Source: a virus. Taken from it: DNA of 64,000 nucleotides. Below, piece after piece: positions 15,456-48,438 of this stretch. The notes below the pieces were generated by a model that was not told the DNA's origin, made no database searches, and saw nothing but the letters and a program-made list of their open reading frames with translations. Within the stretch, counting starts at the first letter, position 1. Each line of letters begins with the position of its first letter. Both the position numbers and the translations under genes were made by a program. The stretch is taken from the IMG/VR virus record IMGVR_UViG_3300020045_002218, positions 43,579-107,578 of that record; one strand, given 5' to 3'.

Positions 15456-15464
15456 GGATTTCAA

Positions 15465-16061: not shown

Positions 16062-16065
16062 TCCG

Positions 16066-16659: not shown

Positions 16660-17000
16660 CTCTCCATCGTTCAGATTCAACTATTGAAATTGAGGCAATA
16701 GTTACACTAAGTTCAAGTACTATTGTAAACATAATAAGTGGTTTGTTTACAAATTTAAGTTCTGATGCTATAAGTGTTGGATATTTAACTGTAGAAGGAG
16801 TAAACCGAATAGAACAATGTACATTAAAAGGTATTATTCCAGCAAATACACATGGAACTAATACTATAAATCTTTCAGTGATGTCTGGCGGATATTCTGT
16901 AAGCACAACGTACTTTAATAGACGTTTTTCAGATAGTGCAACAGTGCCTATGTTTGGTGGACTTCTAGCAAGTACAATCATAGTACGAGAATATGTATAA
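16659..17000 (+). pseudogene. Headless C-terminal tail-fibre domain remnant
   Basis: Frame open from 16614 to the stop at 17000 with no ATG/RBS at its 5' end; SDSTIEIEAIV...FGGLLASTIIVREYV resembles beta-sandwich fibre tips. Confidence 0.5.
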
Positions 17001-17025
17001 CTATAATTAAGTAGAATATATTTAT

Positions 17026-17379
17026 ATGATAGAACCAATTTCAGTAATTTCAGAAGCAAAAGACGGTTATCAATTATCTTTAGGTATGCTAACAATTCTA
17101 ATATTAGGATTTTCTTGGTTTATTATTAAATATTTTGAAATTACAAAAAATCAAGATATTAAAGATACTGAGAATAATATAAGAATTGATAAAATTAATA
17201 AAGAGCATACTGATCAAGTTGATAAAATTCATTTAGAACATAGCAATAGGATAGAAAGATTAATTGAATCACATAGAGCAGAAGTTTCCACTACTCTTGA
17301 TAAACTTACTTCTACACTACATGACTTACATATTGCACTTGAAAAACGTGTAGTTTCATTTAGAAATAATGAATCCTAA
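17026..17379 (+). CDS. Membrane protein (one TM plus coiled coil), possible holin/antiholin
   Basis: LSLGMLTILILGFSWFIIKYF followed by charged helical region. Confidence 0.5.
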   Translation: MIEPISVISEAKDGYQLSLGMLTILILGFSWFIIKYFEITKNQDIKDTENNIRIDKINKEHTDQVDKIHLEHSNRIERLIESHRAEVSTTLDKLTSTLHDLHIALEKRVVSFRNNES

Positions 17380-18949
17380 AACAGTTGTAGAATATTTAAA
17401 TAATATTTCATATAAAGAAGATACTAATTATGTACCTTCTTTATTTGCACTTGAATTTATTAATTTTATTAAGCTTGTTAATGGTGAGACAGGAGAAGAA
17501 CACAAAACTCCTGTAATTCATTTTAAGATGTTAGATACAATCCAAGGTAAAGAAACAGATATTATCAATATGCTATTTAGAGGTAGTGCTAAAACTACGA
17601 TAATGGCTGAGTATTTAATTCTTTATATTGGTACTTATGGTTCAATACCTAATTTTGGTAAAATATCTTTAGGGCTTTATGTTTCAGATTCCATTGAAAA
17701 TGGTGTTAAAAACATGAGAAAGAACTTAGAGTATAGGTGGCAAAATAGTTCTTTCTTACAGGAATACATACCTTCTACAAGGTTTACAGATGTAAGGTGG
17801 GAGTTTGTTAATGCTGATGGAATACAAACTGTATTCAAAGGATACGGTGCAAAAACGGGAGTGAGAGGAGCTAAGGAAATGGGTCAAAGACCTTACTTAG
17901 CAATATTAGATGACTTAGTTTCAGATGAAGATGCAAGGTCAGTAACAGTTATTGCAAGCATAGAAGATACTGTTTATAAAGCTATCGACTATGCACTACA
18001 CCCAACTAGAAGAAAAGTAGTTTGGAACGGTACACCATTTAATTCAAGAGATCCTTTATACAAAGCAGTAGAATCTGGTGCATGGAAAGTAAATGTATTT
18101 CCTGTGTGTGAACATTTTCCCTGTACCAAAGAAGAGTTTAATGGTGCATGGGAAGATAGGTTTACTTATGAATATGTTCAAGAGAAATATATTAAAGCAC
18201 TTAAAGCAGGAAAAATAGATACATTTAACCAAGAATTAATGTTAAGGATTATGAGTGATGAAGATAGGCTTATTACTGATTCAGATATTAGATGGTTTAA
18301 AAGAGAATCGGTATTAAAGAATAAAGGAATATTTAATTTCTATATTACAACTGACTTTGCAACAAGTGAAAAGACTTCTGCTGACTTTAGTGTTATCTCT
18401 GTATGGGCTTATAATGCTAATGGTGACTGGTTCTGGGTTGATGGAATATGTAAGAAACAAACTATGGAAAAGAATGTAGATGAATTATTTCGTTTATCTC
18501 AAATGTATAAACCACAACAAGTAGGTATAGAAGTTACAGGTCAACAAGGAGGATTCATTCAATGGATTGAAGGAGAAATGATGAATAGAAATATTTGGTT
18601 TACTATTGCTAGTGATAATAATTCTTCTAAACCTGGAATAAGACCTAACACTAACAAAATGCAGAGATTCAATATTGTTGTACCTTGGTTTAAGACTCAT
18701 AAGATTTACTTTCCAGAAGAGTTAAAACTAGAACCAGCAATAGTAGAGTGTATGGATGAATTAAAATTAGCTAGTGCTGGAGGATTCAAATCTAAACATG
18801 ATGACTTTATAGATACTATTAGTATGCTTAGTTCAATAACTCCTTGGAAACCAAGTCAAGATATTCCTGTTAAAGATACTACACAAACTTCTATATGGGA
18901 ACTTGACATACCAGAAGAAAGAAACTACATTAGCTCATATATTGTATAA
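17369..18949 (+). CDS. terL: Terminase large subunit (N4 gp68-like)
   Basis: Walker A FRGSAKT, Walker B LAILDD, GTP coupling motif, nuclease TTDFA and HDDFID. Confidence 0.96.
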   Translation: MNPKTVVEYLNNISYKEDTNYVPSLFALEFINFIKLVNGETGEEHKTPVIHFKMLDTIQGKETDIINMLFRGSAKTTIMAEYLILYIGTYGSIPNFGKISLGLYVSDSIENGVKNMRKNLEYRWQNSSFLQEYIPSTRFTDVRWEFVNADGIQTVFKGYGAKTGVRGAKEMGQRPYLAILDDLVSDEDARSVTVIASIEDTVYKAIDYALHPTRRKVVWNGTPFNSRDPLYKAVESGAWKVNVFPVCEHFPCTKEEFNGAWEDRFTYEYVQEKYIKALKAGKIDTFNQELMLRIMSDEDRLITDSDIRWFKRESVLKNKGIFNFYITTDFATSEKTSADFSVISVWAYNANGDWFWVDGICKKQTMEKNVDELFRLSQMYKPQQVGIEVTGQQGGFIQWIEGEMMNRNIWFTIASDNNSSKPGIRPNTNKMQRFNIVVPWFKTHKIYFPEELKLEPAIVECMDELKLASAGGFKSKHDDFIDTISMLSSITPWKPSQDIPVKDTTQTSIWELDIPEERNYISSYIV

Positions 18950-18958
18950 GGAATATAA

Positions 18959-19588
18959 ATGTTAGTTAGTGATTTTTTAAATATTGTTAAATCAGGTAAT
19001 TTATCTGAAACTAAAGTTACAGATGCTAGTCTTCTTAATTTTTTAAACTTAGGTTTAAATGAATTATATGGTAAATATAGTCTTAATATAAAAGAAGAAA
19101 ATTATGTTTTAACTTCAGATACAGAATATGATTTACCAGATGATTTTATTTCATGTATTAAAGTAACATCCCCTTCTGAATATCATAGAGATACTAATGG
19201 TAATATAGCTAAACTATCAGATTCGTTATTTGAATTATCTATTAATGTGTATGGTGATTGGAATAGTTTATTAATTACTGAATTTGGTATGTTAAAAATA
19301 GATAAGCCTATTGTAGGACAATCTATTAGATTAATTTATAAAGCATCTCCAAAACAACTTACATCTTCTAATTTAACTTCTAAACTTAAAATAGGTAATC
19401 AATACTTAGAAGCATTATCTATGTATATGACTTATCTTGGATTTATGCAGAATGGTGGTGGTACTCAAGGAGATTCAAATACTTATCTTAATAGATATGT
19501 AATGGCTTGTAATAATTTAGAAACTAATGGAGATACAAGTAAAATATCTAATGTAAATAATAAATTTAATGAAAGAGGATTTGTATAA
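18959..19588 (+). CDS. Head-tail adaptor (N4 gp67-like)
   Basis: LNLGL.EL N-terminus and KFNERGFV C-terminus; follows terminase as in N4. Confidence 0.75.
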   Translation: MLVSDFLNIVKSGNLSETKVTDASLLNFLNLGLNELYGKYSLNIKEENYVLTSDTEYDLPDDFISCIKVTSPSEYHRDTNGNIAKLSDSLFELSINVYGDWNSLLITEFGMLKIDKPIVGQSIRLIYKASPKQLTSSNLTSKLKIGNQYLEALSMYMTYLGFMQNGGGTQGDSNTYLNRYVMACNNLETNGDTSKISNVNNKFNERGFV

Positions 19589-20850
19589 TGCCAACTCCAG
19601 AAGATTATGCTTTATCTGCTGCATCCTCTGCTAATGATGCTTTATTAAGTGCATTATTAGCTACTGCTAAATCTGTTCTTACAAGTGAAGATCAGGTAGC
19701 TGCTGCTCAGTGGGCTGCTGATGCTTATACTTATATGCTTAATTGTCAAAATGGCGTAAGTATTGTAAATAATAATTCTTCTATTGAAGCTACTATATTA
19801 GCTTTAGCTACAGATTTTGCTACAAAGTACCTTGGCTCACATTCTACTGCCCCTGTATCAGCACAAATTGGAGCACAATATTGGAATAGTACAGATATAA
19901 CAATGTATACTTGGGATGGTACATCTTGGATAATTCCTAGATCTTTATTTGATGGAAATATTAATGCAGGAACATCAAGTGTTTCTGAAGGTAAAGTTCA
20001 ATTACGAAGAGATTTAGCAGGTTTATGGACAGTATCTAATCCTATATTATCTATAGGTGAGTTAGGTATTGAAACAGATACTGGATTTATAAAGATAGGT
20101 GATGGAGCATCTCCTTGGGTAGATTTGCTATATTCAGGATCTCCTAAAAGTGTTATTACAGGAATTGAAAATGTAAATAATACTTCTGATGTTAATAAAC
20201 CTGTATCTACTTTACAAGCTACTGCTATTCAAACAGCTTTAAATACTGCTAAAGCATATACAGATACTTCTAGGTTAGGACATTTAATTGATGTAGGTGA
20301 ATATTCTGTAGCAATATCTAATGCTTATCCTATATCAGGAGGTTCAGGTATTTCAGGAACTATTCTAAAAGGAAATGTATTTAATTGCACTGGTTCAGGT
20401 ACTATTAACTCTTTATCTATAACAGATGGATTTTCATTAAGAGCTTTAGTAGATAATCCTACACAATCTGATACAGATTGGCTTATTACAGCTAAACCTA
20501 TATTACATGATAAACCTTATATAATTGTTTTATATATCCCAGGATTAGTAATTAATGCTTATACTTACCCTTCTCATATATTTACTATACCTGTATCCTT
20601 TGCAGTAAATTTTGAATTAAGTAAAGCTAGCAGTAAAATTTATGCAACAGATACATATACTTTAAATATTTTAAAAGGAGGATTAATTATAGGTACTATT
20701 GTATTTAATGTAGGTTCAACTACAGGGGTATTTAGTACACCTTACATAACAACATGTAATGCAGGCGATACGATTGAAATAAGATCTCAGGATAATCCTG
20801 ATGCTTCTCTTTCAGATGTATCTATATCACTTTATGGTACAAGAATTTAA
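19588..20850 (+). CDS. Tail fibre/appendage protein with Mtd N-terminal-like domain
   Basis: VQLRRD...W..SNPIL..GELGIETDT...KIGDG...W..L.Y and G.ENVNNTSD.NKPVST motifs. Confidence 0.75.
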   Translation: MPTPEDYALSAASSANDALLSALLATAKSVLTSEDQVAAAQWAADAYTYMLNCQNGVSIVNNNSSIEATILALATDFATKYLGSHSTAPVSAQIGAQYWNSTDITMYTWDGTSWIIPRSLFDGNINAGTSSVSEGKVQLRRDLAGLWTVSNPILSIGELGIETDTGFIKIGDGASPWVDLLYSGSPKSVITGIENVNNTSDVNKPVSTLQATAIQTALNTAKAYTDTSRLGHLIDVGEYSVAISNAYPISGGSGISGTILKGNVFNCTGSGTINSLSITDGFSLRALVDNPTQSDTDWLITAKPILHDKPYIIVLYIPGLVINAYTYPSHIFTIPVSFAVNFELSKASSKIYATDTYTLNILKGGLIIGTIVFNVGSTTGVFSTPYITTCNAGDTIEIRSQDNPDASLSDVSISLYGTRI

Positions 20851-20862
20851 TTAGGAAATATA

Positions 20863-21309
20863 ATGGCAAAAATAAGTGAATCACTTAGAAATCATCTATT
20901 AAATAATGCAGTAGCATCAGGACTTACACCATTTGCAGTAACATTTTTTAATGGAGCAGTACCTTCACTTCCTTCAGATGCTGTAACAGGAGCTACTTTA
21001 GTTATGTTTACTGTTAATAATGACGGTATAACAGGTGCAACATGGGGAACTGCTGTTGCTGGTATTCTTTCAAGAACACCCTCAGAAGCTATGAGTGGTA
21101 CTTGTTTAATTGGAGGATCACCAACATTTTATCGAGTACATAATATTACTGAAAGTCCTTCTGCGGCAAATACGACATTTTATAGAACACAAGGTACACT
21201 TGGAGCAGCAAATACAGATGGTATATTAGATACCTCCTTTTTTCCTATGATTTTAGGTACAGTATATAACTTAGGTAATGTTGTTATTCCTTCATATATG
21301 GGAAGTTAA
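20863..21309 (+). CDS. Putative structural (tail) protein
   Basis: KISESLRN.LL start, G..P...D.A.TG..L and G..TFYR patterns seen in phage tail proteins. Confidence 0.55.
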   Translation: MAKISESLRNHLLNNAVASGLTPFAVTFFNGAVPSLPSDAVTGATLVMFTVNNDGITGATWGTAVAGILSRTPSEAMSGTCLIGGSPTFYRVHNITESPSAANTTFYRTQGTLGAANTDGILDTSFFPMILGTVYNLGNVVIPSYMGS

Positions 21310-21314
21310 TTTTA

Positions 21315-22799
21315 GTGAATAATCTGATTAAAGATGCTAAATATTATATGTTTTATCCTCCACCTGTATTGCAGAAAGTACCTGCATATAGCTATGAAGA
21401 AATAAGATATGTAACATCTGAATCAGATGCTTATACGGTAAATGATGTAATTGTATTTAAAATTATTCCTCGTAAAATAAAGCAACCAAATACAGATAGA
21501 GTTGTTGTTTTTACAGAAAATATACCAGGAAAAACTTTAGAAATTTTAAAAACATCTATATCTAATAATGGAAATAGAGCTATTAAAGTCGTTGTTAAAG
21601 TTCCTGAGAGTTATTCTTGGTTTACTCCTGTACCCTATATAAAAGAATTTAATATTGTTGGATGGAATGGCGGAGCAGTATCTAAACAATATTTTATTAA
21701 TTATGGTGAAGCAGAGTTTTCTATTGATGAAACTGCTGTAGGAGTAATTGCTGGTTTAACATCTACAAATAATGCAGTAGAAAATGCTCATTATAGTTTA
21801 ATTAAATATGCTTTTTATGGTACTTTAGGAAAGTATTCTATTTTTATAAATGGATCAGATATAGGTTTATTAAGTAAAAATTATAATTCAACTACTAAAT
21901 TTAAAATTATTGTAGGTTTTTCTGGTATAAAATTTTTAGTAAATAATGTAGAAGAATACTCATATTCCGTTAAGCCAGAAATATCTACATATAATTTAGA
22001 TACAAGTTTATATAATAGTTTTGATAGAGTTCTTAATGCTTCTATAAAACAAGTATCTTATGCAGAAATTGGTGTTATATCTTCTGTATTAAATTATATA
22101 ATTATGAATGGTGTAAAATATCAATTACATAATAATAATATTTTAATAAATAATATTTGGTATAGTGCAATAACTAACGGATATGTAATTATAAATGGCT
22201 TACTTTATAATGTAGACGATAATAAAATATTTTATAATGGTTTAATTATTCCAGTTATAAATAATACAGTAACTGTTTCAGGTGTACCTGAAAGTATTTA
22301 TAATATTTCGTATGACACCATAATAGTTATTAACGCTAATATATATTCTGTATTTACTGAAATAGTAAATATTAATAATCAAAAATATCCTACAGGATAT
22401 TGGGTAGTAGGTTTAGATTGTAATTTAATAAGTAAAGATTATTCTAGTAGTATAAATTTATGTAACATTGGATGTAACTTAGAACCTTACTATGATTTAA
22501 CATCAACAATATTATTAGAGTCTTCTTTAATTTATTTAGGAGGAACATATATATCTTCACAAATAAATATAGATAATTCAATATATACAGAATATGTATT
22601 AAATAATAAAATAAATTTAGGTAACGTTTTATATTATGTAGGTTATTCATATATATCTAATGAATTAAAATTTAATAATTATTTATTTGCTGGTGGACTT
22701 ACACCTACAATACCTCCAAAACTTGTAAATGGTTTTGAATTAAATTGTTCTTTAAGAAATTATTTTATTGAAGATCCTTCACTGTTTGTTATTTTATAA
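21315..22799 (+). CDS. Putative tail protein with lectin-like domain, Asn/Ile/Tyr-rich
   Basis: GWNGGAVS motif, structural-cluster position, very AT-rich. Confidence 0.5.
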   Translation: MNNLIKDAKYYMFYPPPVLQKVPAYSYEEIRYVTSESDAYTVNDVIVFKIIPRKIKQPNTDRVVVFTENIPGKTLEILKTSISNNGNRAIKVVVKVPESYSWFTPVPYIKEFNIVGWNGGAVSKQYFINYGEAEFSIDETAVGVIAGLTSTNNAVENAHYSLIKYAFYGTLGKYSIFINGSDIGLLSKNYNSTTKFKIIVGFSGIKFLVNNVEEYSYSVKPEISTYNLDTSLYNSFDRVLNASIKQVSYAEIGVISSVLNYIIMNGVKYQLHNNNILINNIWYSAITNGYVIINGLLYNVDDNKIFYNGLIIPVINNTVTVSGVPESIYNISYDTIIVINANIYSVFTEIVNINNQKYPTGYWVVGLDCNLISKDYSSSINLCNIGCNLEPYYDLTSTILLESSLIYLGGTYISSQINIDNSIYTEYVLNNKINLGNVLYYVGYSYISNELKFNNYLFAGGLTPTIPPKLVNGFELNCSLRNYFIEDPSLFVIL

Positions 22800-22808
22800 A
22801 AAGAAATT

Positions 22809-25070
22809 ATGATTAAAAATATAGAACTTAATAATGATGATAATGAAAATTTTAAAGTATCTAAATTAGTTAAATGGAAGAATCCTCCTAAACTGGATGA
22901 CTTAAAAACTGATCTAACTACTGCATTATCAGATCATAATAAACATATATCTAAAGTAAATACTTGGTTAGATAACTTAAATATAACAGGTTCAGCTAGG
23001 ATTGATAATGGTAAGAAAAGAAGTAATATTCAACCTAAACTTATCCTTAAACAAGCTGAATGGAGAAAAGCTGCATTAACAGAACCTTTCTTCTCTACAG
23101 ATGATTTATTTAATGCTGAACCAATAACCTATGAAGATAAGAAATCAGCAGTACAAAATGCTTTAGTATTAAATAAACAATTTAATACAGATATTGATAA
23201 GAATAAATTTATTACGGACTATGTACACACATTGGTTGAAGAAGGTACTGCTATTGTTCGTACTGGGTGGGAATATATTGAAGAAGTAGTAGAAGAAGAA
23301 GTACAAGACTTTGAATTTATTCCTTCACAAGATCCATCTTACATACAGAAATTACAAACATTGGCTCAAGGTAAACAAGATGATCCAATTAACTTTAGTC
23401 AAACAGTACCACAAGAGTTTCAACAAGCTTTAGAGTTAAGTATGCAGTATAGCACACCTATGTTTCCACAAAATATAGGTTCACATATTGAAACTAAAGA
23501 AAAAATAATTAAGAATTGTCCTACAGTAGAAGTACTTAATTTTAATGATACTATTATAGATCCATCATGTAGAGGAGATATTGATAAAGCTAGATTCTTT
23601 ATTTATAGATTTGAAACAGATATGTCTGATTTACAAAAAGCAGGTATATACTCCAATTTAGATAAAATTGATACTGAGTTTTCAGAAAATATAACTACTG
23701 ATAGTTATAACAGAGAACAATATACATTTAATTTTAAAGACAAACCAAGACAAAAATTAGTAGCTTATGAGTATTGGGGATATTGGGATATTGATGGATC
23801 AGGTATAGTTAAACCTATTGTAGTTACTTGGGTTAATAATATTATTATTAGACAAGAAGATAATCCATTTCCTCATAAAAAATTACCTTTTGTTTTAGTA
23901 CAATATATACCCGTTAGACAGTCTATTTATGGTGTACCTGATGGTGAATTTTTAGAAGATAATCAAAAAATTGTAGGTGCTGTTACTAGAGGTATGATTG
24001 ATCTTATGGGTAGATCAGCTAATGCTCAACAAGGTATTAGAAAAGATGCTTTAGATGTAACTAATAAAAGAAAATTTGATAAAGGTGAAGATTATGAATT
24101 TAATCCTACTACCCATCCTAGTGAAGCATTTCACATGTCTGTATTTCCAGAAATTCCACAATCTGCTCAATATATGCTTAACTTGCAAAATATGGAAGCT
24201 GAATCTATTACAGGAGTTAAATCCTTTTCACAAGGAATTGGTGGACAATCTTTAGGTAATGTTGCTGTAGGTATTAGAGGAGCACTAGATGCTGCTTCTA
24301 AAAGAGAATTATCTATTGCTAGAAGATTAGCTGATGGTTTGGTTAAAGTAGCTAGGCAGATAGTTTCTATGAATTCAGAATTCTTATCTGAAGAAGAAGT
24401 AATTAGAATTACTAATGAAGACTTTGTTACTGTAAGAAGGGATGACTTAGCAGGTAATATTGACATTAGAATTAGTATTTCTACTGCTGAAGTAGATGAA
24501 CAGAAAGCTCAAGAATTAAGTTTTATGCTTCAAACTATGGGTAATACAATGCCACAAGATTTCAGTCAAATGATTCTTGTAGAAATTGCTAAATTAAGAA
24601 AGATGCCAGACTTAGCTAAGAAGATTGAGAAATATGTTCCTGAACCTCCACAACCAGATCCTTTAGTAGAAGCACAATTAGCGTTGTTACAAGCTCAAAC
24701 CCAAGAGATACAAGCTAAGATAGCTGAACACCAAGCACAAACAGAATTAGAATATGCTAAGATTGCTGTAGAACAAGCTAAAGCTAAACAAATGAATAGT
24801 CTTACTGATAAGACAGATTTAGACTTCATAAACGATGAATCAGGTGTATCACATCAAAGAGCTATAGAAACTGTACAGGCTCAAGCTAAAGGTAATATTG
24901 CTTTAGAACAAACTAAACATCAACAAAAGATTGAAAAAGGTTTATTTGATCATGAACTAAATAAAAATTTAGAAGCCAGTAAGCATCAAATGAATTTACA
25001 AAACAAAATGTTAGATCATGCTTCAAGTATGGATCAACTTCAAGCTAAACCTAAATCAGGAGTTAAATAA
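22809..25070 (+). CDS. Portal protein (N4 gp59-like)
   Basis: WKNPP.L.DLK.D, QPKLI.KQAEWR, AVTRGMIDLMGRSAN, ELSFMLQTMG. Confidence 0.95.
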   Translation: MIKNIELNNDDNENFKVSKLVKWKNPPKLDDLKTDLTTALSDHNKHISKVNTWLDNLNITGSARIDNGKKRSNIQPKLILKQAEWRKAALTEPFFSTDDLFNAEPITYEDKKSAVQNALVLNKQFNTDIDKNKFITDYVHTLVEEGTAIVRTGWEYIEEVVEEEVQDFEFIPSQDPSYIQKLQTLAQGKQDDPINFSQTVPQEFQQALELSMQYSTPMFPQNIGSHIETKEKIIKNCPTVEVLNFNDTIIDPSCRGDIDKARFFIYRFETDMSDLQKAGIYSNLDKIDTEFSENITTDSYNREQYTFNFKDKPRQKLVAYEYWGYWDIDGSGIVKPIVVTWVNNIIIRQEDNPFPHKKLPFVLVQYIPVRQSIYGVPDGEFLEDNQKIVGAVTRGMIDLMGRSANAQQGIRKDALDVTNKRKFDKGEDYEFNPTTHPSEAFHMSVFPEIPQSAQYMLNLQNMEAESITGVKSFSQGIGGQSLGNVAVGIRGALDAASKRELSIARRLADGLVKVARQIVSMNSEFLSEEEVIRITNEDFVTVRRDDLAGNIDIRISISTAEVDEQKAQELSFMLQTMGNTMPQDFSQMILVEIAKLRKMPDLAKKIEKYVPEPPQPDPLVEAQLALLQAQTQEIQAKIAEHQAQTELEYAKIAVEQAKAKQMNSLTDKTDLDFINDESGVSHQRAIETVQAQAKGNIALEQTKHQQKIEKGLFDHELNKNLEASKHQMNLQNKMLDHASSMDQLQAKPKSGVK

Positions 25071-36519: not shown

Positions 36520-39500
36520 ATGTCTTCTACATTTAGGGGTTCAACTTTTGATAGTTCTTCTTTTGATAACAATACTGACTTGGTACATCAAAAGAAAACA
36601 AGTCTATTAGATAAAGTATTTCAAAAGAGAACTGATTTAGGATTCAGTTCAGCTAATTTAAAGGATAGATCTGTAGAAGCATTGGATGCTGATACAGTTA
36701 GAATTAATCCTAGTGTAGCAGATAAAGCTTTTGATCCTATGGTTAAACCAGTAGATGTAAGACTTAAAAGTAATAACTTTGGTGAATCATTTAATGCTTT
36801 TGAGACTTCTCATGATAATGAAGATGATCCTGAAGTAGCTGCTAGATTACAAAAACAAAGAGATACTATTGATAATGAATGGACTCATGGTTGGTTTAAT
36901 CCAGCTACAAACCAAGATGTATATGATAGAGGTAATGCTAGTAAACAAGTATTAACAGATAAGCTTAAAACAGTCAATGAAGGTAAAACTGGATTAGACT
37001 TTGCTTTAGGTGAAAAAATTCAATTAGACAAATTTGGTAGACCATTAGGTGATATGAAATTCTCTAATGAGGATGTATCTGCTATTGATGCTATGAATAC
37101 TCCTGAGTTAAATGCTTCCTATAACACACCATATAACTTTGCTAAAGTAAACAAAGATGGTGGTGGATTAATAGATACAGCTAAAGACTTTGCAGGTACT
37201 CTTTTAACTAAAACACCTACCGTATTAGGTAACATAGCTGTTGGTACTCATGGTTTAGCTTCTGCAATGGTTAATGCACCTACACAGGCACTAGGAAATA
37301 TTGTAGGTGGTGATACTGGAGACAGCATTAAAAAGTTTGGTGATATAGCTAGTACCTATGAGTTACAAAATATTCTTCAAAATAGAACTCATTATGCTAA
37401 ACCTTTAGTAGATGCTTTACCTATATCGGATGAGGCAAAAGACACCTTAAACAATCTTAAATATGAACCAAATAGATTAGATGCTACTACTGATAAGCTA
37501 TATCAATCTGATGCTTTAGCTAAGTCAAGACAGGATTCTGAATACAGATCAAACCAAACACAAAGATTAAGGGATGAATTAGGGTATAAACCAAAAGGTG
37601 TATATGAGAGTGCTATGGCACTCTCTTCTGATGTAGTGGATTCATTACAGGCATTTGTAGAGAATCCTAGAGCAACACTTACACATGATTTACCTGCTAA
37701 CATAGCTCAATTAGCTGTACCTATTGGAGTTACAGGAAGAATTGTAGATAACATAGCTATGAAAATTGCATCTAAAACTTCTGGAGGAGTTGTTGATGGT
37801 GTAATTACCCAAGTAGGTAAAGATGCAGCAACTAAATATATTAGTTCTGCTCCTGTACAAAAACAGTTATTAGCTATAGGTGGTTTAACTGAAGGTACTC
37901 AAGCAGCATCTTCTATTGTAAATCAGGCAGAAGAAGCTAATGTATCTCCTAGTCAGTATTTAGCACCAGCTATTGTAGGAGGTGTTGTTACAGGTCTTAT
38001 TGGTACTGGTTCAAATAAATTACTTGGTGCTACAGCAGCAGATGCTCTAGTTGGTGTAAACAGAGTTAAAGGATCTGCATTTACTAAAGCTCTTAAAGCG
38101 TTTACATCAGAAGGGATAGTAGAAGAATTTCCACAATCGGTAAATGAACAGTTAGCTACAAATATTGCATTAGGAAAAGAAAATGTAATAGAAGGTGTAG
38201 GTCAAGCAGGTGGTTCAGGAGCTATTGTTGGTGGTCTATTAGGTGGAGGTATGCACACACCTATATTGTTACAGGATGTTCTACAAGCTCGAAAAACACC
38301 TTCAGTTGAACCAACATCCGTCTCAGAAGAGAAACCTTCTACAATCGAAGATTTGACACCTTCTAAGGTAGATATTAAAGCTTATGAAGATTCAGTTAAT
38401 AACATTACAGATGACAACAGACAAGAAGTTATAAACCAAGGTATTAAAGATTATCCTGTTGACGGTACTTTACCTGAAAAGATTCAAATGGCTGTAGCCA
38501 TTGGTAAAGCTAGAGATGGGTTTAATTCACCAGAGCATGATGCAATATATAGACAAATTAATGCAGAAATTCAATTACAGAATTTTGCTAAAGGAATGCC
38601 TAACTTCAATGATGTAATTTCTGATCCAAATACTTCAATTGAAGATATTCAAGATAATCTTATTACAGGTGCAGTAGATTCTACATCAGAGAATACTGGC
38701 TCATTATTTAATGATATTGGTAGAACTAAAGATGAGGATACATTAAATATTCTTAAAGATATTTCTATAGCTAAACAAAAAGAGTATGCTGAAAGTGATA
38801 CAGTAAATGATCCTTATGTATTAGTTACTACAGGTATTGAAACTAAAAACTTACCTAAAGAATCTTCTGAAGTATTCTCATCTATTACAAGGAATGAATA
38901 TACAGACTTAAATCAAGGATTAACTTTATTATCTAGTCATGTTAAATCAGCTACAACACCAGAACAAAAGAATACTGGTATATCAGCATTAACTAAAACT
39001 ATCTCTAAAGTATATTCAGATAAAGTAGATATTACTTCTGCTACAGAAAGATCAGTTAAACAAGCATTAAATACTATTAATGGTTTAGTTAATAACAAAG
39101 GTACTATTACTATTGAACCAAGTGATACATTAGAACAGATTCACAATAAGATATTACCTACATTTGGTTCAACTCCTATTAAAGGTAGTTCTAGTAATCC
39201 TAAAGCAAATGCTTTTATAAAAGCTACTAATAAAGTATTACAAGGCGCACAAACATTATCTAAATTCTTAACACAAAAATATGTAAATGATAAAACCACA
39301 GGTGAAGTACATCAAGAAATAATTGATGGTAAAGGTGAGAAATTAAGTGTACTAGACCATGCTACTATTATTTCTGGAAAGATTGCAGATACAAATTCTG
39401 ATGAAGAATCAGTAAATAGGGCATTTAATAGATTTACTAACTGGGTAGACTTTCATACACAAAAAGCAGAATTATCTACTGCACTAGGAGCTATTCCAGA

Positions 39501-42500
39501 ATCTAATAAGAAAGCTCAACAAATAATTGAAACAGCATTAGAAACTTTACAAGGACAAGATACTTTTAAAGAATTTAAGAGTAATCCAATTATATGGACT
39601 AAAGGATTATCTAGTTTAGCTGAGACAATGAATGCTGAAGTATTTTTCATGCAGAATACTCTTGATACTTTACAAGAATTAAAAGATGCTAGGTTTGGTT
39701 CTAAAAATACTGCTACACAAGTAACCTCTACTGCTGAAAGTATCTCTCAGACTGATGAGAATGCCCTAGATTTAACGAATGTAAATCAGGAAGATACTAT
39801 TGAAGAAATCAATATGGATGATATTCCTGAGAAATCAGTAACCTCTAAAGAATCTTCATTTAATGAAGAACAAGAAAAAATTTATCAAGATTATGAAGCT
39901 GAACAAGATTCACAACAACAAGCTCAAAATGAGCCTACAAGCAACGAAATAAGTAAATCTGAAGAAGTTATTACCTCAGAAAAGAAAGCTTCTGTAACAG
40001 TATCTACAGAGCTTACAGAGGTATCTTTGGATAATGAACAGACTCAAGATTTACTTGAAGTACCTTTACCACCTGAAGATACTAAAAATTATTCAGAGTT
40101 AATTAATAGAACGTATTTCCCCTTTAGTACAGAAGAACAACTTAAAAGTATTAGAATATTTTTCTTTGCTAATGCTCTAAAAAATAAGATACCTGAAGCA
40201 AAAGCTAGATTTTTGTACTTACAAGAGTTAGCTACAAATAATAAAGATACTATTAATGAGACATTTGATTTACCTATCTGGCGTTTTGATATTATAAGAC
40301 CATATTCTTTAACTCATAAATGGAAAGATGGTAAGTTAGTATCTAAAACTAGAGCAGTAATTACTTCCTTAATAGATAACACAAAGCAATTCTTTAGTGA
40401 TTTATTTAATATTAAAAATGATAATTTATTTAACAGAATTCCTAATTTATTGGAACATATCCAACAAAATAAATTAGTAAATAATGATAGCTTAGATGCA
40501 ATAGTTAAGTTTCATACTGATTTTGTTAAAACATTTGAAGCTAATATTAACCCTGAATTACTTAAAGAAAGTTTATCTGATAATGCTGCATCATCATTAT
40601 TTGTATATGATCCTAAAAAAGGTAAAACATACCTAGAACCAAATACTTTATTTGCTATGAGTCTTGGTTCAATACAGTTTTTACAAACAGCACTATCTAC
40701 GGTTTATAATGATGATGATGCTATTAGAAGTATTGTTGGTTTAAAAGAAGGTGACAACTTACCCGCTTATGTAAGAGATTTATTAAGTGATAAAGGTTCT
40801 GTAGCTAACATAATGAAGAATCAATTAGGAGCTTCTTTATCTAAGTTGTTAGGTGTAACATATAAACCAGATACTACATTACCTCAAATCGAAGGATTTG
40901 AAGCTTCATTAGGTGCTTATGCTTTAAGAACTCTTATTGATATAAAATTACTCGAAGAAACTCAAATTGAGAAATCTACTATTAATGCTATGAAGAATCA
41001 ACTTGAAGAAGGAACTCTTCCAGGAAACCAAAAGACACAAGATATAGTAAATAAACTTTACATTGGTGCAACAACCTTTGTAAGAGTAGCTGCACAAAAG
41101 AATATTGAAACAGGAAGACCTGAAGTAAAATCTGAAATTAAAGAACTACTTGAAGCTATTAAACCAGCAAGTAAAGAATTAGATGATTTACTTAATACAA
41201 CATTTTCAGAAGCATTACCTTCAGGTAGTAAAACTTCCTTGAAGGCTTTAAAAAAATGGTTAGGTAAAACTTGGCAAGGTTCTAATGCTGAATATACAGA
41301 AGCAGAATACAAAGCAATAAAGAAGTATAACGATACTGCATATACAGCAGAAACTAAAGCTATGAATGCTGCTTTAATATTAGATGAAGAATTTATTAAA
41401 CAAGTAGCTTTAGGTGAACAGTATACTGATGTAGTTCAAAAACATTTTGAAAAGACTAGAGCAGGTAAAGAATTACAAGCAGAGAATGAGTACAAGTATT
41501 TGATGGATTCCTTTGATGTATTTAAAGAACATGGTTCACTTTACTTCTTATCTAAGTTTTGGAAACAAGGAAGAGTAGGTATGGAGAAAGGACCGCAAAA
41601 CAGTAAAATGATGAGATGGTTATTTGCTCCTAAAGGTGTTGAATATGAAGTTAACTTATCTAACAAAGAATCCTCTAAATTCTTTAAATTAGCTGTTGTA
41701 GCAGCATTTGGTACAAAGATAGATCAAATATTAGATACAGCCTTAGATAAAGAATTTGATGCCTTACTGGTCAAATATAAAGATGTCCTAGAAGACTACT
41801 CTAAAACTAAAGGATATACAGAAAATGTAACACAAGAAATGAAAGATACTCTTCTTGATGCTATATATGCTGGTAAAGAAGGATTTCATAGTTATGCTGG
41901 ATTACTTGAATTAGCCCATTACAATGAGAATAAAGATAAAGGTAAATTTACTTCTCAGTTAATGAGAGAAGATGATGGTATTACTAATGGTCCAGCAATA
42001 GGATGGTTACTCTTTAATGGTGGAGATAATAAAAGAGTATTAGATGGATTTGCTATCTTTACAGATAGTCATGAAGATACATTTACTACTCACATGGCTA
42101 AAGAAGGTAGTGCAGATAATTACAATCTTATGGGTCAAAAAGCTAAAGAGAACCAAGTAATTGTTAATAATAAATTAGAAGAGTTAAACACTTACTTAAC
42201 AGAGAATCCAACTGTAAGATCTTCTATATTTAGAATTAAATATTATGATAAAAAGAACGGAACAGACTCTTTTAATGCTTGGTTCTATAAACAAGGTTTA
42301 GGGGATATGTTTGCTACAAATTCTTATGAGTTTGGTTTATTACTTAATGTTATTGAAGAATCTAAAACTCTTATAGATACCAACGAAGGTAAGAAGAAAG
42401 CTAATTATAAAGAGAATTTACAACCTACTCTAAATGCAATTCATTCTATGGTAGGGGAGTTAAATAGATCATTTGCTAAGATGCCTTTAATGACGCTTAT

Positions 42501-45500
42501 CTTTGGTTCGGGTATTAATAAGATTGCTAGTAATATTGGATATATTGCTATTGATTCTATGTATGAAAAGATTCAAAAGGTTATTAGAAGTAAACCAAAG
42601 AACCAAGAAGAAATAGATGCACAGAGAATATTACTTAAAGAAATAGAAGATAATATTATTGAGCTTACAGGATATGATATTCCTTTACCTTTAAACGAAG
42701 ATAAAGAAGAAGATGCTTCTCTTTATTCTAATTCTGTTGCAGAAGATTACGATTCAACATTAGCTGCATATTCTATTGAAGCTCTTAAGAATTTTAAATT
42801 ACCTATTTATGTAGAAAAGAAATTAGCTAAACAAATAGCTAATGTTTATGTACCTATTATTAGAGCTTCTGTTAATGCTAACTTTCAAACATTTATTGAT
42901 AACAGAAAAGCTATAAACCAAATATATGATATAGGTAATACTGTACTTAAAACACATATAGAACATGAAGTATCTCTTGTTCTTAAAGATGGTTTAACTA
43001 AACAGAAGTTATTAGATATTTTTGAGAAAGCAGTTAAGCTAATGCCTTCAATGAAAGTACCTAATTTTGATGGTACTGAGAGAGAAATATTCTATTGGAA
43101 TAAAGATGAATCTAGTTCTACTATGCCTGAATTTAAGGTACAAGTAAAACGTAAAAAGAATAAAGAAATACTGTCTTTTTCTTATTTAGATGATAACGGT
43201 GAGGTACATACAAGTAAACCAGTAATACTTAACAGTTCAACTGATACAGGTCATGCAGTAGGTATATTACTTGAAGCTATAGGTGTAAGAACACCTATTA
43301 TGACTATTCACTATACAGATTCTTTACCTGTTAAAGAAATAATGAACAGTAACTTAATATCTACTATGGTTCATGATGCTAGAATTGGTGCAGCAAATAC
43401 TTCTGATGAAGGAAGTTATTTGATGAATAAGAAGTTGCTTGAAAGCATTAATTTACTTAATCCATTTAAACAAGCAACAGATTATTTACAACAAGTATTT
43501 GATAACTTACCTAAAGGAGATTCTAAACTATCTAGTAAATTAAAAGATGCTTTAGAGAAACCTTTAAAAGAAGCATTTAAGAATAAACAAACTGTTCCTC
43601 ATGTACAACAAGGTAAAAGAAAGGTAAGTCCTTTAGTCTATAACAAAGAAAATTCAGGTAAACAATTTAAAGATTATTTAGGCTATTTAAATGAATGGGT
43701 GAAATACCAAACAGGTGTAAAAAATGAGATAGCTAAGTCTATTAAAGCATTTGGTAACTATGGTGGTAATGCTACATTTAAACCTCAAATGGTTGAAGCT
43801 GTTAAACAAGACAATTTCAGAGAATTAGTAGCAGAAGAGTTTAAAGATGTACTAAAGAATATCTCTTTAGGTAAAGGAAATAAACCGTTAAACGATATAA
43901 CAGATAAGCTTATAAATCTATATACACAAGTAAATGTTGTAGAAACACTGCAAGAGTTTATTAATAGAATAGATACTCTTGGTTTAACTATTGAGCAATT
44001 CAAACAACATCAAACCAATATTGAGAATAAAATATTAGGTACTTCTAAACAAGAAACTAAAACTAAACCAAATAAATCTAATAAAGAAGAAGTAACTAAT
44101 TCAACAACTCAAACTAATGGGGATAAATTAGTAATATTACCTATAGGTACTTCTGGTTCAGGTAAATCTACTTGGATTAAAAGTCTTAAAGGTGAGTATG
44201 TAATTATTTCTCCTGACGAAATGAGAGTTGAATTCACAGGAAGTATGGATGATAAGTCTCAAGATAAAGAAATTTATGAAGCTGTAAAACAAAGAACTAT
44301 TAAAGCTATAAATCAAGGCAAACAGGTAATTATTGATAGTACAAATCTTCAAAGAGATAGAAGAAGAGACTTTACTAATGCTATTTTACAAGCTATTCCT
44401 GATGCTAACGTTGTTTATAAATTACTTCCCTTAAATCCAGAATTAGCTAAACAAAGAATTAAAGCTCAAATAGATAAAGGTGAAAATAGAGCAAATGTTC
44501 CAGATAGTTCAATTGATAGACATGCGGAATTATATAAGGAAATGCTTAATGATATTAAAGATGAGCCTATAAAAGAATTCAAAGAACAAACCAATGAAGA
44601 TATTCCTTTTATTTTAACTAAAGATAAAGTACAAAAATTAAAAGAATTTCTAACTAAATACATAAACCAATCGTCTACATATTCTATAAAAGAGGTTCTT
44701 ACTTTAGTAAATACTAAAGCTCCAGACTTTAAAGATATGGATATTGTAAAGTATATGTATGGACAGTTACTGTCTACATATTATTCTGATACAAAACAAA
44801 AAGAAGATTTTGAAAAAGGTAATAATACTCCAGATCAATTTTATGCACATAAAAATTATTGGAATACTAGAAAAGAATATGGACTTAGATTAGTTAAAGA
44901 CAATCAGTCTGGTAAAGTAAAATTACAGAATATTAATAAACAACTTAATGAAAATAATAAACCTCTTGGTTCAACACCTGATGCTAAAGATTTACTTACC
45001 GATATAGAAGATTTAAAGAAAGATATTACTACTGAGAATATAGTATCTGAATTTGATGCTATGCCTAAAGGTGATGATGAAACACATAACACATTCTTAA
45101 GAAATTTTGTGTCTCAAGTAATAGCTCCAGTAGTAGAAGCAACTGAATTACTTCTGTTTAGTAAAGCTACATATACCTATGGACAGTATTCTGCTGAGTT
45201 AAAGAAAGTAGCTATTAACTTAGGTCAAGCATTACAAGAACAATACTCTCCATTTAAGATGTCTGCTCAAGAAGTATTTGCCCATGAATTCTCTCATGCT
45301 GTTACTTGGACTGCATATCAAATGCCTAAGAATGGTACCCTTAAAAGAAAGATTGATAGTTTATTTTATAATGTAAGAAGAGAGTTTAATAAAGCTAAAT
45401 TAATAGATACATCTTTAGCTAATTGGGATTATGTATTTAATAATGCTGATACTATAAAAGTAGATAATGCTCCTAATTCTTTAGGAGAAGTAACAACTAC

Positions 45501-48438
45501 TTCATACGACAGAGGTATTCAAGAGTTTATTGCTTTTGGTACTACTAACAAGGAATTTAGAAATCTAATTAAAAGACTTCAACCTAAACAATTAAAAGTA
45601 AATCAAGTATATGAAGGTACTGGTTCAGATGTAATTAAAGAAGCTTCTTGGTTAGAAACAATAACTAATATTTTTAAAAAAATATTAGATTCATTTATGA
45701 GAATAGCTAAAGGTAATGATTACCTTGAACCATTAACTCAGTTTGATACTAATGTAAGGCTTATATTAGCTGCTAATATAGATAAACCTTTTATTAATAT
45801 TACTGCTATTACAGATAAAGTAGAAGCTGAAGTAGCTAAAAAGACTAATGAAGGTTTTAAAAAAGGACTTAGAATCATTGCTAAAGGTAGAAATTCTAAA
45901 GTTCAAGCTATTAGAAGTGCCGCTAAATTAGCTGATGCTGTACCTGCTATTGGAGGATTTCAAACTAATCAAGTAGTAAGACAAACTCTTAAATTAATTA
46001 CTAATCCAACAGCTAGACAATTTGCTTTAGACTTAGTTAAAGATATTGCTGATGTAAATGAAAATAGTAAACCAATAACTAATACAACTATTCAGCAGAA
46101 GACAGCAGATGCTGATAGAAATAAAGCTACAGATTCTGATGAGAATAACTGGAGTAAACGAGTTACATTAAACCATGAACAAGATATAGCTTATAATAGT
46201 GTTCTTGTTAGAGGAGATTATGAGAGTCTTAATGATGCTTACGGTAATGATGCTATTAAGCTATTAAAGGATAAATCTTTTAGAGATAAAGAGATTAAAC
46301 TTATTGAAGATCAAATATATAACTTAAAAAGTAAAGCTCTTAACTTAGCTAATCTAATGGTTCATGGTAAGAATATGTTTAATGGTATGACAGAACATAA
46401 TGCTGTACTTATTGCTAAACAAGGTAGAAGTATCTCTCAAGATAAGTATCAAAAAGAAATAGATTTAGTAACTAAACTAAGCAGACTTTATGCTATTGGT
46501 TTACAGGATGAAAACCAAGTAAACCAAATAATATCTTTATTAGAAAGTAATTTTGATGGTATGAAACAAATGCTTAAAGTTCATAAAGAACTTAAGAAAC
46601 AGCAGTTATCTGAAATAGATGCTCTTACTGTTATTGATGGTAAAACTCATACGACATTAGATCCAAACAAAACAATATTTTTAGGTACTAAAGAAGATGA
46701 AAAACATTTAGTATCTGATTGGAAAGCTAAAGTAATAGGTAGATTAGAAAGAGATCCTAATGATCCATTATCTACTGAAGGTATTTTGTATTTAGTAGAT
46801 GTTAAAATGCAAAATGATTGGGATGCTAAAGCTATGGCTACTACTGATATTACACCTGGCTCAAGTAATTTTCAGTCTGGTATAGTTAAAACCGATAGAT
46901 TTAAAGCAGAAGAAAATAGAGAGAAAGCTAAACTTAAAGAAGATGGTACTAACACTAAAAATCATATATTTACAAGAAATAATTCTAATGTATCACGAGT
47001 AGCTATTCATAATGCTCAAGGTAAAATTATTAGATATGAATATATTCTTGATAGAGAAACACAAGAAAAATATCTTAATCCAAGAATAAATGTATTAAGG
47101 GACTTAGCTGCACAAAAGAATGGTACTGCATATAGAGCTAAAGCTTATGAGTTAAATCATAAGTTAGTGGATGCTCTTTTTGATTACTGGAAGAAATTAG
47201 GACATGATGCTAGAAAGGATATGATTTGGGTTGGTTCAGATAGTAAGTATAGTGATTTATATAACACTATTCCTACGGAAACTAAAGAATATATTACTAA
47301 AATATTTGGTACTAAAAATGGATTTTATATGGCAGAAGAAGAACTGCGAGAAGTATTTGGATACAGAAAACAATCTATAACTAATTGGATTCAACCTGTA
47401 CAAGCTGATAATTTGAAAAAAACTATAGGAAACATGATCTATGAGCAAGCTAAAAGATTTGGTTTAAACCAAGCTAATATTAAAGCTATAGAAACTATGT
47501 GGATTGAAGGTATAGCAATAGCTAAAGATACTATTGTTGTTAAATCTGGTGTTGTATCAGCAGCTAATGAATCAAGTAACTTTATGACTGCTAAGTTAGC
47601 TGGTGTTCCTATTGGATTCTATTATAAAAATAAAATATCTGCTATGAAAGCAGAACAGGAATACAGAAGAAATTCTCATGCTTACTTATCTCATTTAAGT
47701 AATGCTTATGGTAATCCAGAATATATTACTAAAGAGATAGCTCAAGAAATGAGTATTCTTGAATCTGCATTATCAACTAATGAAATGAGTTATTTACATG
47801 ATGAAGGATTAGCTTCAACAGTAGCTGAAGAAGGTTCTTATAAAGATAAACATCAAACCATGTTATTTAATAAAACTGAGAGAGCTAGAAACATATTTGA
47901 TAAATTACCTAAAGTAGTTAAAGATACTCTTAAAATAGCATCAATATCTGAAGGTACTAAGATATATAAACTATTAGATGAGATAGCTCAAATGGGTGAT
48001 ATTACATCACGTCATGTATTAGTTAAATGGGAAGAAGAGAAAGCTAGACAACAAGGTAAAGAGTTTGATAAGAATAAAGCTATAGACTTATCTAAATTCT
48101 TATTTATCCAATATCACACAGTTACTAATGACTTGGTTCAATATGGTAATGATATTGGTTTGTTAATGTTTACTAAATTTGCTGTTAAGACACTCAAAGT
48201 CTTAACTTATATGGTAGGACAACACCCTGCTAGATTATTAGCACTAGGTATCTTTGAAGAGTTATTTGCTACTACAGAGTGGATATGGCATACAAGTATG
48301 AATAAGTTAGCTAATCCAATTACATCTGCTTTAGCTACTATTGATGCAAATCCAATAGTAAACTTATTAGTAACTCCTCCTGCTTATATGCCACAAGAAG
48401 TATTAGGGGCATTAAGTACACTTCCATTAGTACCATAG
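36520..48438 (+). CDS. Virion-encapsidated RNA polymerase (N4 gp50-like), multidomain
   Basis: 3972 aa, no Cys seen; motif A EDDGITNG (~41970), motif B RSFAKMPLMTLIFG (~42466), motif C VHDA (~43370), zincin HEFSH (~45283) with EFIAFG, AKD.IVVKS, Y.ND.GL.MFTKF. Confidence 0.95.
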   Translation: MSSTFRGSTFDSSSFDNNTDLVHQKKTSLLDKVFQKRTDLGFSSANLKDRSVEALDADTVRINPSVADKAFDPMVKPVDVRLKSNNFGESFNAFETSHDNEDDPEVAARLQKQRDTIDNEWTHGWFNPATNQDVYDRGNASKQVLTDKLKTVNEGKTGLDFALGEKIQLDKFGRPLGDMKFSNEDVSAIDAMNTPELNASYNTPYNFAKVNKDGGGLIDTAKDFAGTLLTKTPTVLGNIAVGTHGLASAMVNAPTQALGNIVGGDTGDSIKKFGDIASTYELQNILQNRTHYAKPLVDALPISDEAKDTLNNLKYEPNRLDATTDKLYQSDALAKSRQDSEYRSNQTQRLRDELGYKPKGVYESAMALSSDVVDSLQAFVENPRATLTHDLPANIAQLAVPIGVTGRIVDNIAMKIASKTSGGVVDGVITQVGKDAATKYISSAPVQKQLLAIGGLTEGTQAASSIVNQAEEANVSPSQYLAPAIVGGVVTGLIGTGSNKLLGATAADALVGVNRVKGSAFTKALKAFTSEGIVEEFPQSVNEQLATNIALGKENVIEGVGQAGGSGAIVGGLLGGGMHTPILLQDVLQARKTPSVEPTSVSEEKPSTIEDLTPSKVDIKAYEDSVNNITDDNRQEVINQGIKDYPVDGTLPEKIQMAVAIGKARDGFNSPEHDAIYRQINAEIQLQNFAKGMPNFNDVISDPNTSIEDIQDNLITGAVDSTSENTGSLFNDIGRTKDEDTLNILKDISIAKQKEYAESDTVNDPYVLVTTGIETKNLPKESSEVFSSITRNEYTDLNQGLTLLSSHVKSATTPEQKNTGISALTKTISKVYSDKVDITSATERSVKQALNTINGLVNNKGTITIEPSDTLEQIHNKILPTFGSTPIKGSSSNPKANAFIKATNKVLQGAQTLSKFLTQKYVNDKTTGEVHQEIIDGKGEKLSVLDHATIISGKIADTNSDEESVNRAFNRFTNWVDFHTQKAELSTALGAIPESNKKAQQIIETALETLQGQDTFKEFKSNPIIWTKGLSSLAETMNAEVFFMQNTLDTLQELKDARFGSKNTATQVTSTAESISQTDENALDLTNVNQEDTIEEINMDDIPEKSVTSKESSFNEEQEKIYQDYEAEQDSQQQAQNEPTSNEISKSEEVITSEKKASVTVSTELTEVSLDNEQTQDLLEVPLPPEDTKNYSELINRTYFPFSTEEQLKSIRIFFFANALKNKIPEAKARFLYLQELATNNKDTINETFDLPIWRFDIIRPYSLTHKWKDGKLVSKTRAVITSLIDNTKQFFSDLFNIKNDNLFNRIPNLLEHIQQNKLVNNDSLDAIVKFHTDFVKTFEANINPELLKESLSDNAASSLFVYDPKKGKTYLEPNTLFAMSLGSIQFLQTALSTVYNDDDAIRSIVGLKEGDNLPAYVRDLLSDKGSVANIMKNQLGASLSKLLGVTYKPDTTLPQIEGFEASLGAYALRTLIDIKLLEETQIEKSTINAMKNQLEEGTLPGNQKTQDIVNKLYIGATTFVRVAAQKNIETGRPEVKSEIKELLEAIKPASKELDDLLNTTFSEALPSGSKTSLKALKKWLGKTWQGSNAEYTEAEYKAIKKYNDTAYTAETKAMNAALILDEEFIKQVALGEQYTDVVQKHFEKTRAGKELQAENEYKYLMDSFDVFKEHGSLYFLSKFWKQGRVGMEKGPQNSKMMRWLFAPKGVEYEVNLSNKESSKFFKLAVVAAFGTKIDQILDTALDKEFDALLVKYKDVLEDYSKTKGYTENVTQEMKDTLLDAIYAGKEGFHSYAGLLELAHYNENKDKGKFTSQLMREDDGITNGPAIGWLLFNGGDNKRVLDGFAIFTDSHEDTFTTHMAKEGSADNYNLMGQKAKENQVIVNNKLEELNTYLTENPTVRSSIFRIKYYDKKNGTDSFNAWFYKQGLGDMFATNSYEFGLLLNVIEESKTLIDTNEGKKKANYKENLQPTLNAIHSMVGELNRSFAKMPLMTLIFGSGINKIASNIGYIAIDSMYEKIQKVIRSKPKNQEEIDAQRILLKEIEDNIIELTGYDIPLPLNEDKEEDASLYSNSVAEDYDSTLAAYSIEALKNFKLPIYVEKKLAKQIANVYVPIIRASVNANFQTFIDNRKAINQIYDIGNTVLKTHIEHEVSLVLKDGLTKQKLLDIFEKAVKLMPSMKVPNFDGTEREIFYWNKDESSSTMPEFKVQVKRKKNKEILSFSYLDDNGEVHTSKPVILNSSTDTGHAVGILLEAIGVRTPIMTIHYTDSLPVKEIMNSNLISTMVHDARIGAANTSDEGSYLMNKKLLESINLLNPFKQATDYLQQVFDNLPKGDSKLSSKLKDALEKPLKEAFKNKQTVPHVQQGKRKVSPLVYNKENSGKQFKDYLGYLNEWVKYQTGVKNEIAKSIKAFGNYGGNATFKPQMVEAVKQDNFRELVAEEFKDVLKNISLGKGNKPLNDITDKLINLYTQVNVVETLQEFINRIDTLGLTIEQFKQHQTNIENKILGTSKQETKTKPNKSNKEEVTNSTTQTNGDKLVILPIGTSGSGKSTWIKSLKGEYVIISPDEMRVEFTGSMDDKSQDKEIYEAVKQRTIKAINQGKQVIIDSTNLQRDRRRDFTNAILQAIPDANVVYKLLPLNPELAKQRIKAQIDKGENRANVPDSSIDRHAELYKEMLNDIKDEPIKEFKEQTNEDIPFILTKDKVQKLKEFLTKYINQSSTYSIKEVLTLVNTKAPDFKDMDIVKYMYGQLLSTYYSDTKQKEDFEKGNNTPDQFYAHKNYWNTRKEYGLRLVKDNQSGKVKLQNINKQLNENNKPLGSTPDAKDLLTDIEDLKKDITTENIVSEFDAMPKGDDETHNTFLRNFVSQVIAPVVEATELLLFSKATYTYGQYSAELKKVAINLGQALQEQYSPFKMSAQEVFAHEFSHAVTWTAYQMPKNGTLKRKIDSLFYNVRREFNKAKLIDTSLANWDYVFNNADTIKVDNAPNSLGEVTTTSYDRGIQEFIAFGTTNKEFRNLIKRLQPKQLKVNQVYEGTGSDVIKEASWLETITNIFKKILDSFMRIAKGNDYLEPLTQFDTNVRLILAANIDKPFINITAITDKVEAEVAKKTNEGFKKGLRIIAKGRNSKVQAIRSAAKLADAVPAIGGFQTNQVVRQTLKLITNPTARQFALDLVKDIADVNENSKPITNTTIQQKTADADRNKATDSDENNWSKRVTLNHEQDIAYNSVLVRGDYESLNDAYGNDAIKLLKDKSFRDKEIKLIEDQIYNLKSKALNLANLMVHGKNMFNGMTEHNAVLIAKQGRSISQDKYQKEIDLVTKLSRLYAIGLQDENQVNQIISLLESNFDGMKQMLKVHKELKKQQLSEIDALTVIDGKTHTTLDPNKTIFLGTKEDEKHLVSDWKAKVIGRLERDPNDPLSTEGILYLVDVKMQNDWDAKAMATTDITPGSSNFQSGIVKTDRFKAEENREKAKLKEDGTNTKNHIFTRNNSNVSRVAIHNAQGKIIRYEYILDRETQEKYLNPRINVLRDLAAQKNGTAYRAKAYELNHKLVDALFDYWKKLGHDARKDMIWVGSDSKYSDLYNTIPTETKEYITKIFGTKNGFYMAEEELREVFGYRKQSITNWIQPVQADNLKKTIGNMIYEQAKRFGLNQANIKAIETMWIEGIAIAKDTIVVKSGVVSAANESSNFMTAKLAGVPIGFYYKNKISAMKAEQEYRRNSHAYLSHLSNAYGNPEYITKEIAQEMSILESALSTNEMSYLHDEGLASTVAEEGSYKDKHQTMLFNKTERARNIFDKLPKVVKDTLKIASISEGTKIYKLLDEIAQMGDITSRHVLVKWEEEKARQQGKEFDKNKAIDLSKFLFIQYHTVTNDLVQYGNDIGLLMFTKFAVKTLKVLTYMVGQHPARLLALGIFEELFATTEWIWHTSMNKLANPITSALATIDANPIVNLLVTPPAYMPQEVLGALSTLPLVP

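Follow-up and report, generated by a model that had tools for sequence, protein, structure and literature searches.

The window analysed here is a 64,000-nucleotide stretch of viral DNA (positions 43,579 to 107,578 of IMG/VR record IMGVR_UViG_3300020045_002218) and it contains a gene for a giant virion RNA polymerase (vRNAP) of the type described for coliphage N4. The motif B of this enzyme has a Phe (F1995) at the position occupied by Tyr in the published consensus Rx3Kx7YG, which in phage T7 RNA polymerase contributes to the choice between ribose and deoxyribose substrates. We find that this Phe is an ordinary, already published polymorphism that occurs throughout the vRNAP family, and that the window is a new, divergent member of that family. 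We think it probable that F1995 is a fixed, lineage-wide instance of the commonest family state, and that exchange between Tyr and Phe is tolerated with a partner His (H2264) partly taking over the sugar check.

Phe in motif B of the vRNAP

The segment at 42466–42507 on the plus strand is AGA TCA TTT GCT AAG ATG CCT TTA ATG ACG CTT ATC TTT GGT, is in frame with the sole long open reading frame (ORF) at this location (Table 1), and translates as RSFAKMPLMTLIFG; extending the range to 42513 appends TCG GGT (S-G). An earlier note on this DNA described the motif as R-x3-K-x7-F-G with Phe at residue 1995, and the sequence, the reading frame and the residue numbers all agree with that description. 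The note also equated F1995 with Y678 of N4 mini-vRNAP and Y639 of T7 RNA polymerase, and both the HMMER and the family-profile alignments bear this out. In the HMMER comparison with PDB sequences, ELNRSFAKMPLMTLIFGSG is opposite ELKRGIAKNPLTITIYGSG of chain 2po4_A (R666, K670, and Y678), in which the chain numbering is the same as the published catalytic numbering of N4 mini-vRNAP (PMC2784036) and R666 corresponds to R1663 of N4 gp50, as checked on the protein from the genome record. The vRNAP family profile places motif B on T7 R627..Y639-G640, and T7 gene 1 taken from its genome record reads RSVTKRSVMTLAYGS, containing Y639. The Phe codon is indeed one transversion away from TAT, as had been pointed out, with position 42503 being its middle T.

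The match is not a chance one: the pattern R-x3-K-x7-[YF]-G is found once among the window ORFs of at least 150 amino acids (aa), in the vRNAP itself, and is collinear with motifs A and C. It starts 164 aa after D1819 of motif A, and F1995 is 291 aa before D2286 of motif C, with the three motifs in the same order as in N4. No second polymerase with this pattern, such as a homologue of N4 RNA polymerase II, is present among these ORFs.

Distribution of Phe and Tyr in the vRNAP family

With HMMER, 1.84 billion cluster representatives were searched exhaustively, yielding 229 homologues (E≤1e-3), almost all with lengths of 3000–4000 aa. A word-seeded protein search gave just six proteins, and the counts reported here rest on the exhaustive search. 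Motif B is readable in 145 representatives of 50%-identity clusters, out of 154 homologues, and among these 145, which are the best matches to an F-type query, the residue at the Y678 position is Phe in 94 and Tyr in 51. Because the window enzyme and these 94 representatives alike have Phe in place of the consensus Tyr, the Tyr is not a defining feature of the vRNAP family.

On a FastTree phylogeny of the polymerase core region there are at least 11 changes between the Tyr and Phe states, and at least seven are forced by well-supported branches. The window sequence falls in a clade of six (Shimodaira–Hasegawa-like support 96) together with relatives P0002 (92%), P0008, P0003, P0010, and P0011, and Phe is present in all six, in keeping with the earlier guess that it may be clade-wide. 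This clade lies in a half of the unrooted tree that is mostly Tyr (41 Y, 10 F) and includes the N4-type sequences, and the other half is mostly Phe (84 F, 10 Y). The Phe of the window clade may represent either an independent gain or a retention, and the two are about equally parsimonious on the unrooted tree.

Both states are found in cultured phages. Tyr is present in N4, G7C, KP8, JA-1, Philippe, Alteromonas phage PT15-A5, Vibrio phage 1.238.A, PhiImVa-1, and Pylas. Phe is present in the Pseudomonas phages PEV2 (Litunavirus) and 98PfluR60PP, the translated vRNAP genes of which both read RNVIKKPLTAMMFG, and Ceyssens et al. (2010) remarked on the natural 'Y678F' in the vRNAPs of Pseudomonas N4-like phages (PMC3715699). 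The window enzyme thus shares a natural Phe at the Y678 position with LIT1, PEV2, and LUZ7 (PMC3715699) as well as with 98PfluR60PP, all of which are viable cultured phages, although there are two departures. First, the motif context is KKPLTAMMFG in the Pseudomonas F-type vRNAPs and KMPLMTLIFG in the window. Second, the Pseudomonas enzymes are in the Phe-rich half of the tree, whereas the window clade is in the mostly-Tyr half with N4. The rarity of Phe that the earlier note implied is therefore not borne out, as Phe is the majority state of the family, has toggled repeatedly with Tyr, is carried by cultured phages, and was published in 2010. Its interpretation stands as regards the homology, the one-base distance and the clade-wide guess, and is unsupported in the premise that F1995 is a notable exception.

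Klebsiella phage Pylas (locus L013, NC_049444; vRNAP at 12440–23899, minus strand) differs from the consensus at the adjacent position, with motif B reading RGLLKNPVTVTVYS, Y-S for Y-G. Because of this the 'YG' of the published motif B consensus is not invariant. Among cultured phages, Pylas has the portal closest to that of the window, and its vRNAP has Gln at the site of the partner His described below.

A possible partner His upstream of motif C

For 143 sequences (93 F, 50 Y), each column of the alignment from motif B to motif C was ranked by its association with the Tyr or Phe state. At the column of window residue H2264, His is present in 92 of the 93 F-types and in 20 of the 50 Y-types; Gln is present in 26 of the 50 Y-types, and N4 has Gly. 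Three combinations, Y/His, Y/Gln, and F/His, are frequent, and Phe without His is seen once in the 143 sequences. All six members of the window clade have the Phe and His pair, every F-type located among Y-type relatives has His, and several of the Y-types nested among F-types now have Gln at this column. Of seven phylogenetically independent pairs defined by supported branches, an average of 3.7 show His moving in the same direction as Phe, and none shows the reverse. This pattern suggests that H2264 could provide a backup contact with the nucleotide sugar.

Possible consequences for sugar discrimination

The hydroxyl of T7 Y639 bonds the 2'-OH of the incoming nucleoside triphosphate (NTP), either directly or via water; the Y639F mutant accepts deoxynucleoside triphosphates (dNTPs) and 2'-fluoro (2'-F) and 2'-amino (2'-NH2) NTPs, and changes at H784 widen the 2' tolerance further (PMC4551944; PMC6535458). 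The engineered T7 Y639F and N4 mini-vRNAP Y678F enzymes have the same substitution at the homologous motif B residue as the window, but these are laboratory mutants with a measured loss of 2'-OH discrimination, whereas the window Phe is natural and known from sequence alone. We propose that the window vRNAP functions as a normal RNA polymerase, in which F1995 lacks the hydroxyl through which the T7 Tyr touches the 2'-OH of the ribose, such that part of the sugar check would be gone and what remains would be carried by the partner His. Cellular pools of ribonucleoside triphosphates (rNTPs) are far above those of dNTPs, and this excess, together with the short early transcripts made by the vRNAP, would help in the cell. 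The family as a whole would need a polar contact from the Tyr, the His, or both, and Tyr or Phe at motif B would be a tolerated polymorphism as long as the His stays. The comparative data lean towards such compensation or tolerance and not towards an adaptive use of dNTPs, because Phe is almost always paired with His at the H784-like site.

Several points weigh against this reading. In T7, the Y639F mutant no longer discriminates well although it retains H784 (PMC6535458), so that His alone need not compensate, and the His of the F-types may preserve something other than sugar choice. The correspondence of H2264 to T7 H784 is one that we infer from the likeness of I-H-x-x-D-S to V-H784-S-Q-D787-G of T7 and from the spacing to the Asp of motif C (22 residues in the vRNAP, 28 residues to D812 in T7), and neither local hhalign nor a short profile against T7 recovered the H784 region, both recovering motifs B and C only. 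When a sign test is applied to the independent pairs, the median p is ~0.125, with the pairs being few and the association of Phe and His confounded by descent. The share of Phe in the family may also be somewhat inflated by the F-type query, and literature searches found no biochemistry of any natural F-type vRNAP.

One alternative, which we view as possible but unlikely, is that Phe reflects neutral relaxation with no compensation, the F-types discriminating less well at no cost in vivo and the link to His reflecting shared ancestry. The repeated toggling between Tyr and Phe fits near-neutrality, the T7 mutant is active in spite of its lost discrimination (PMC6535458), and the association of Phe with His is not significant when corrected for phylogeny. 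However, Phe without His is seen in one of 93 F-types, whereas Tyr without His is seen in 30 of 50 Y-types, and where Tyr has returned within the Phe-rich half it has often done so with a change of His to Gln, with no contrast in the opposite direction. A bolder proposal, which seems to us quite improbable, is that F-type vRNAPs (about two-thirds of the family, the window included) are naturally permissive: in vivo, early transcripts or replication primers would receive deoxynucleoside monophosphates or 2'-modified nucleotides, and only the invariant His would still check the sugar.

The earlier note offered a compensating mechanism as one option, but its main idea was that the enzyme naturally uses deoxy or modified nucleotides. 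It is very improbable that Phe has been selected for such use, for instance in primers or mixed transcripts. Both dNTPs and 2'-modified NTPs are indeed substrates of engineered Tyr-to-Phe mutants (PMC3715699; PMC4551944; PMC6535458), and a passage in Zhao 2009, citing Kazmierczak and Rothman-Denes, states that N4 vRNAP is required for DNA replication (PMC2784036). However, nothing in the window ties the use of modified nucleotides to the vRNAP, and such products are not reported in the literature searched. Close relatives whose genomes are otherwise alike also differ in having Tyr or Phe, unlike what a specialised function would show. An artefact, whether an error of sequencing or assembly at 42503 or decay of the gene, has a negligible likelihood even though TTT is one base from TAT, because the corresponding codon of the independent metagenome contig 3300020045_000442 of IMG/VR (locus L012), whose protein shares 90% identity with the window vRNAP here, is also TTT while four nearby synonymous sites differ, and moreover Phe is found in every member of the window clade and the frame of 3972 codons is open with all catalytic residues present.

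We thus favour tolerance of Phe with partial compensation by the His, and for the window itself little weight attaches to F1995, Phe being a normal state of the family that has been known since 2010. The question raised is whether natural F-type vRNAPs are poorer at sugar discrimination, or whether the conserved His takes over, and the answer would refine the textbook view of the motif B Tyr as the ribose sensor of T7-like RNA polymerases. It might also provide naturally occurring enzymes with which 2'-modified RNA is made on single-stranded templates.

Organization of the vRNAP gene

The window gene is predicted to encode an intact N4-type single-subunit vRNAP (Table 1). N4 mini-vRNAP (2po4_A) is matched at E 1.6e-13 in the HMMER search of PDB sequences, Pfam N4_RNAP_helical covers residues 1980–2038, and PHROG 2206 'virion RNA polymerase' matches the C-terminal 1161 aa at 3.3e-99. 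The giant size and the complete lack of cysteine conform to a family trait, and the absence of cysteine from the giant vRNAP has been described for N4, the roseophages, and DEV (PMC2784036 among the sources). The catalytic residues R1685, D1819, R1983, K1987, and D2286 are all present and collinear, and the motif C Asp is identical in 143 of 143 homologues.

Table 1. Features of the vRNAP gene in the window
Feature	Coordinates	Strand	Basis
vRNAP gene, 3972 aa, 0 Cys	36520..48438	+	ORF; PDB, Pfam, and PHROG matches
T/DxxGR-type motif W-K-Q-G-R, R1685 (= N4 R424)	41560..41574	+	HMMER: fwkqgr opposite mtrvgr of 2po4_A
Motif A DGITNGP, D1819 (= N4 D559)	41974..41994	+	Aligned to N4 DGVTNGP; recurs across homologues
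Motif B R1983-x3-K1987-x7-F1995-G1996	42466..42507	+	Sequence, HMMER, family profile; Phe codon TTT at 42502-42504
H2264-Y-T-D2267, candidate equivalent of T7 H784-S-Q-D787	43309..43320	+	Column statistics, local motif, spacing
Motif C H2285-D2286 within VHDA, D2286 (= N4 D951 / T7 D812)	43372..43377	+	Aligned to T7 IHDS
In-frame insertion of 278 aa, aa 2534-2811	44119..44952	+	Located between polymerase core and HExxH domain
HExxH (H2922-E-F-S-H2926) of C-terminal C1-like domain	45283..45297	+	Present in 144/154 homologues

The closest reference is the vRNAP of coliphage N4, gp50 (mini-vRNAP residues 998–2103; PDB 2PO4, 3C2P, 3Q22), and the part of the window protein corresponding to mini-vRNAP is the polymerase core at residues ~1150–2530. 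Both are giant Cys-free virion proteins with a T7-like core in which the GR motif and motifs A, B, and C share order and spacing, both have a C-terminal domain bearing HExxH, a motif described for the C1 subdomain of N4 vRNAP (PMC13434306), and both genes have a portal, a major head protein, and a primase in their neighbourhood. However, the cores are only ~22–27% identical, N4 has Y678 with Gly at the His site where the window has F1995 with H2264, and the window protein, at its 3972 aa, carries a kinase-like insertion. Packaging in the capsid, injection, and transcription from hairpin promoters on a single-stranded template are traits of the N4-type family that by analogy are putative for the window enzyme.

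The W-K-Q-G-R motif is 134 aa before motif A, compared to 135 aa in the N4-type sequence. Trp replaces the Thr or Asp for which the T/DxxGR motif is named, and is more frequent at this position than any other residue in the 30 homologues with a pattern match; no conclusions are drawn from this survey by regular expression, as no more than 30 of the 145 sequences matched. The N-terminal 1400 aa (36520–40719, plus strand) matched no PHROG family. Among the BLAST segments listed for the closest relative, high-identity alignment is seen only from residue ~1140 onward. The N-terminal region of the window protein includes an acidic stretch rich in Ser and Glu at residues ~1090–1180.

A kinase-like insertion

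The 278-aa insertion is absent from relative P0002 (87–91% identical), in which the junction reads QTN-K-NNKPLGST, and it is not seen at that place in the other 153 homologues compared. Its first ~135 aa resemble a P-loop domain of the Pnkp polynucleotide kinase type, with the motifs GTSGSGKST, ISPDEMR, and DSTNLQ, and match Pfam AAA_33 at 3e-18 and PHROG 505 'polynucleotide kinase' at 2.4e-15. The kinase domain of Clostridium thermocellum Pnkp (PDB 4jst) aligns at the P-loop, D-x-x-R, and D-x-T-N, and the last ~140 aa of the insertion have no match in the Pfam, PHROG, and PDB comparisons. This putative kinase would enter the host together with the injected polymerase, and the insertion appears to be a more unusual feature of the window vRNAP than the Phe in motif B.

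The phage

The window derives from a very divergent uncultured N4-like phage of the Schitoviridae type, with a vRNAP core that is <30% identical to that of any cultured phage. None of 50,697 phage records was matched by blastn with the motif B region as query, and relatives were found only by protein searches. The portal shares 54.7% identity with those of Schitoviridae (511 records matched), and PHROG matches near the vRNAP include an N4-type portal, a major head protein, a terminase, and a primase. No tRNA genes were found in the window. We note that the contig on which the vRNAP is recorded has 107,578 bases, well above the 66–77 kb of those cultured N4-like phages whose records were compared. 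G+C content is ~30% throughout the window, and a ribonucleotide reductase gene is located at 358–2334 on the minus strand.

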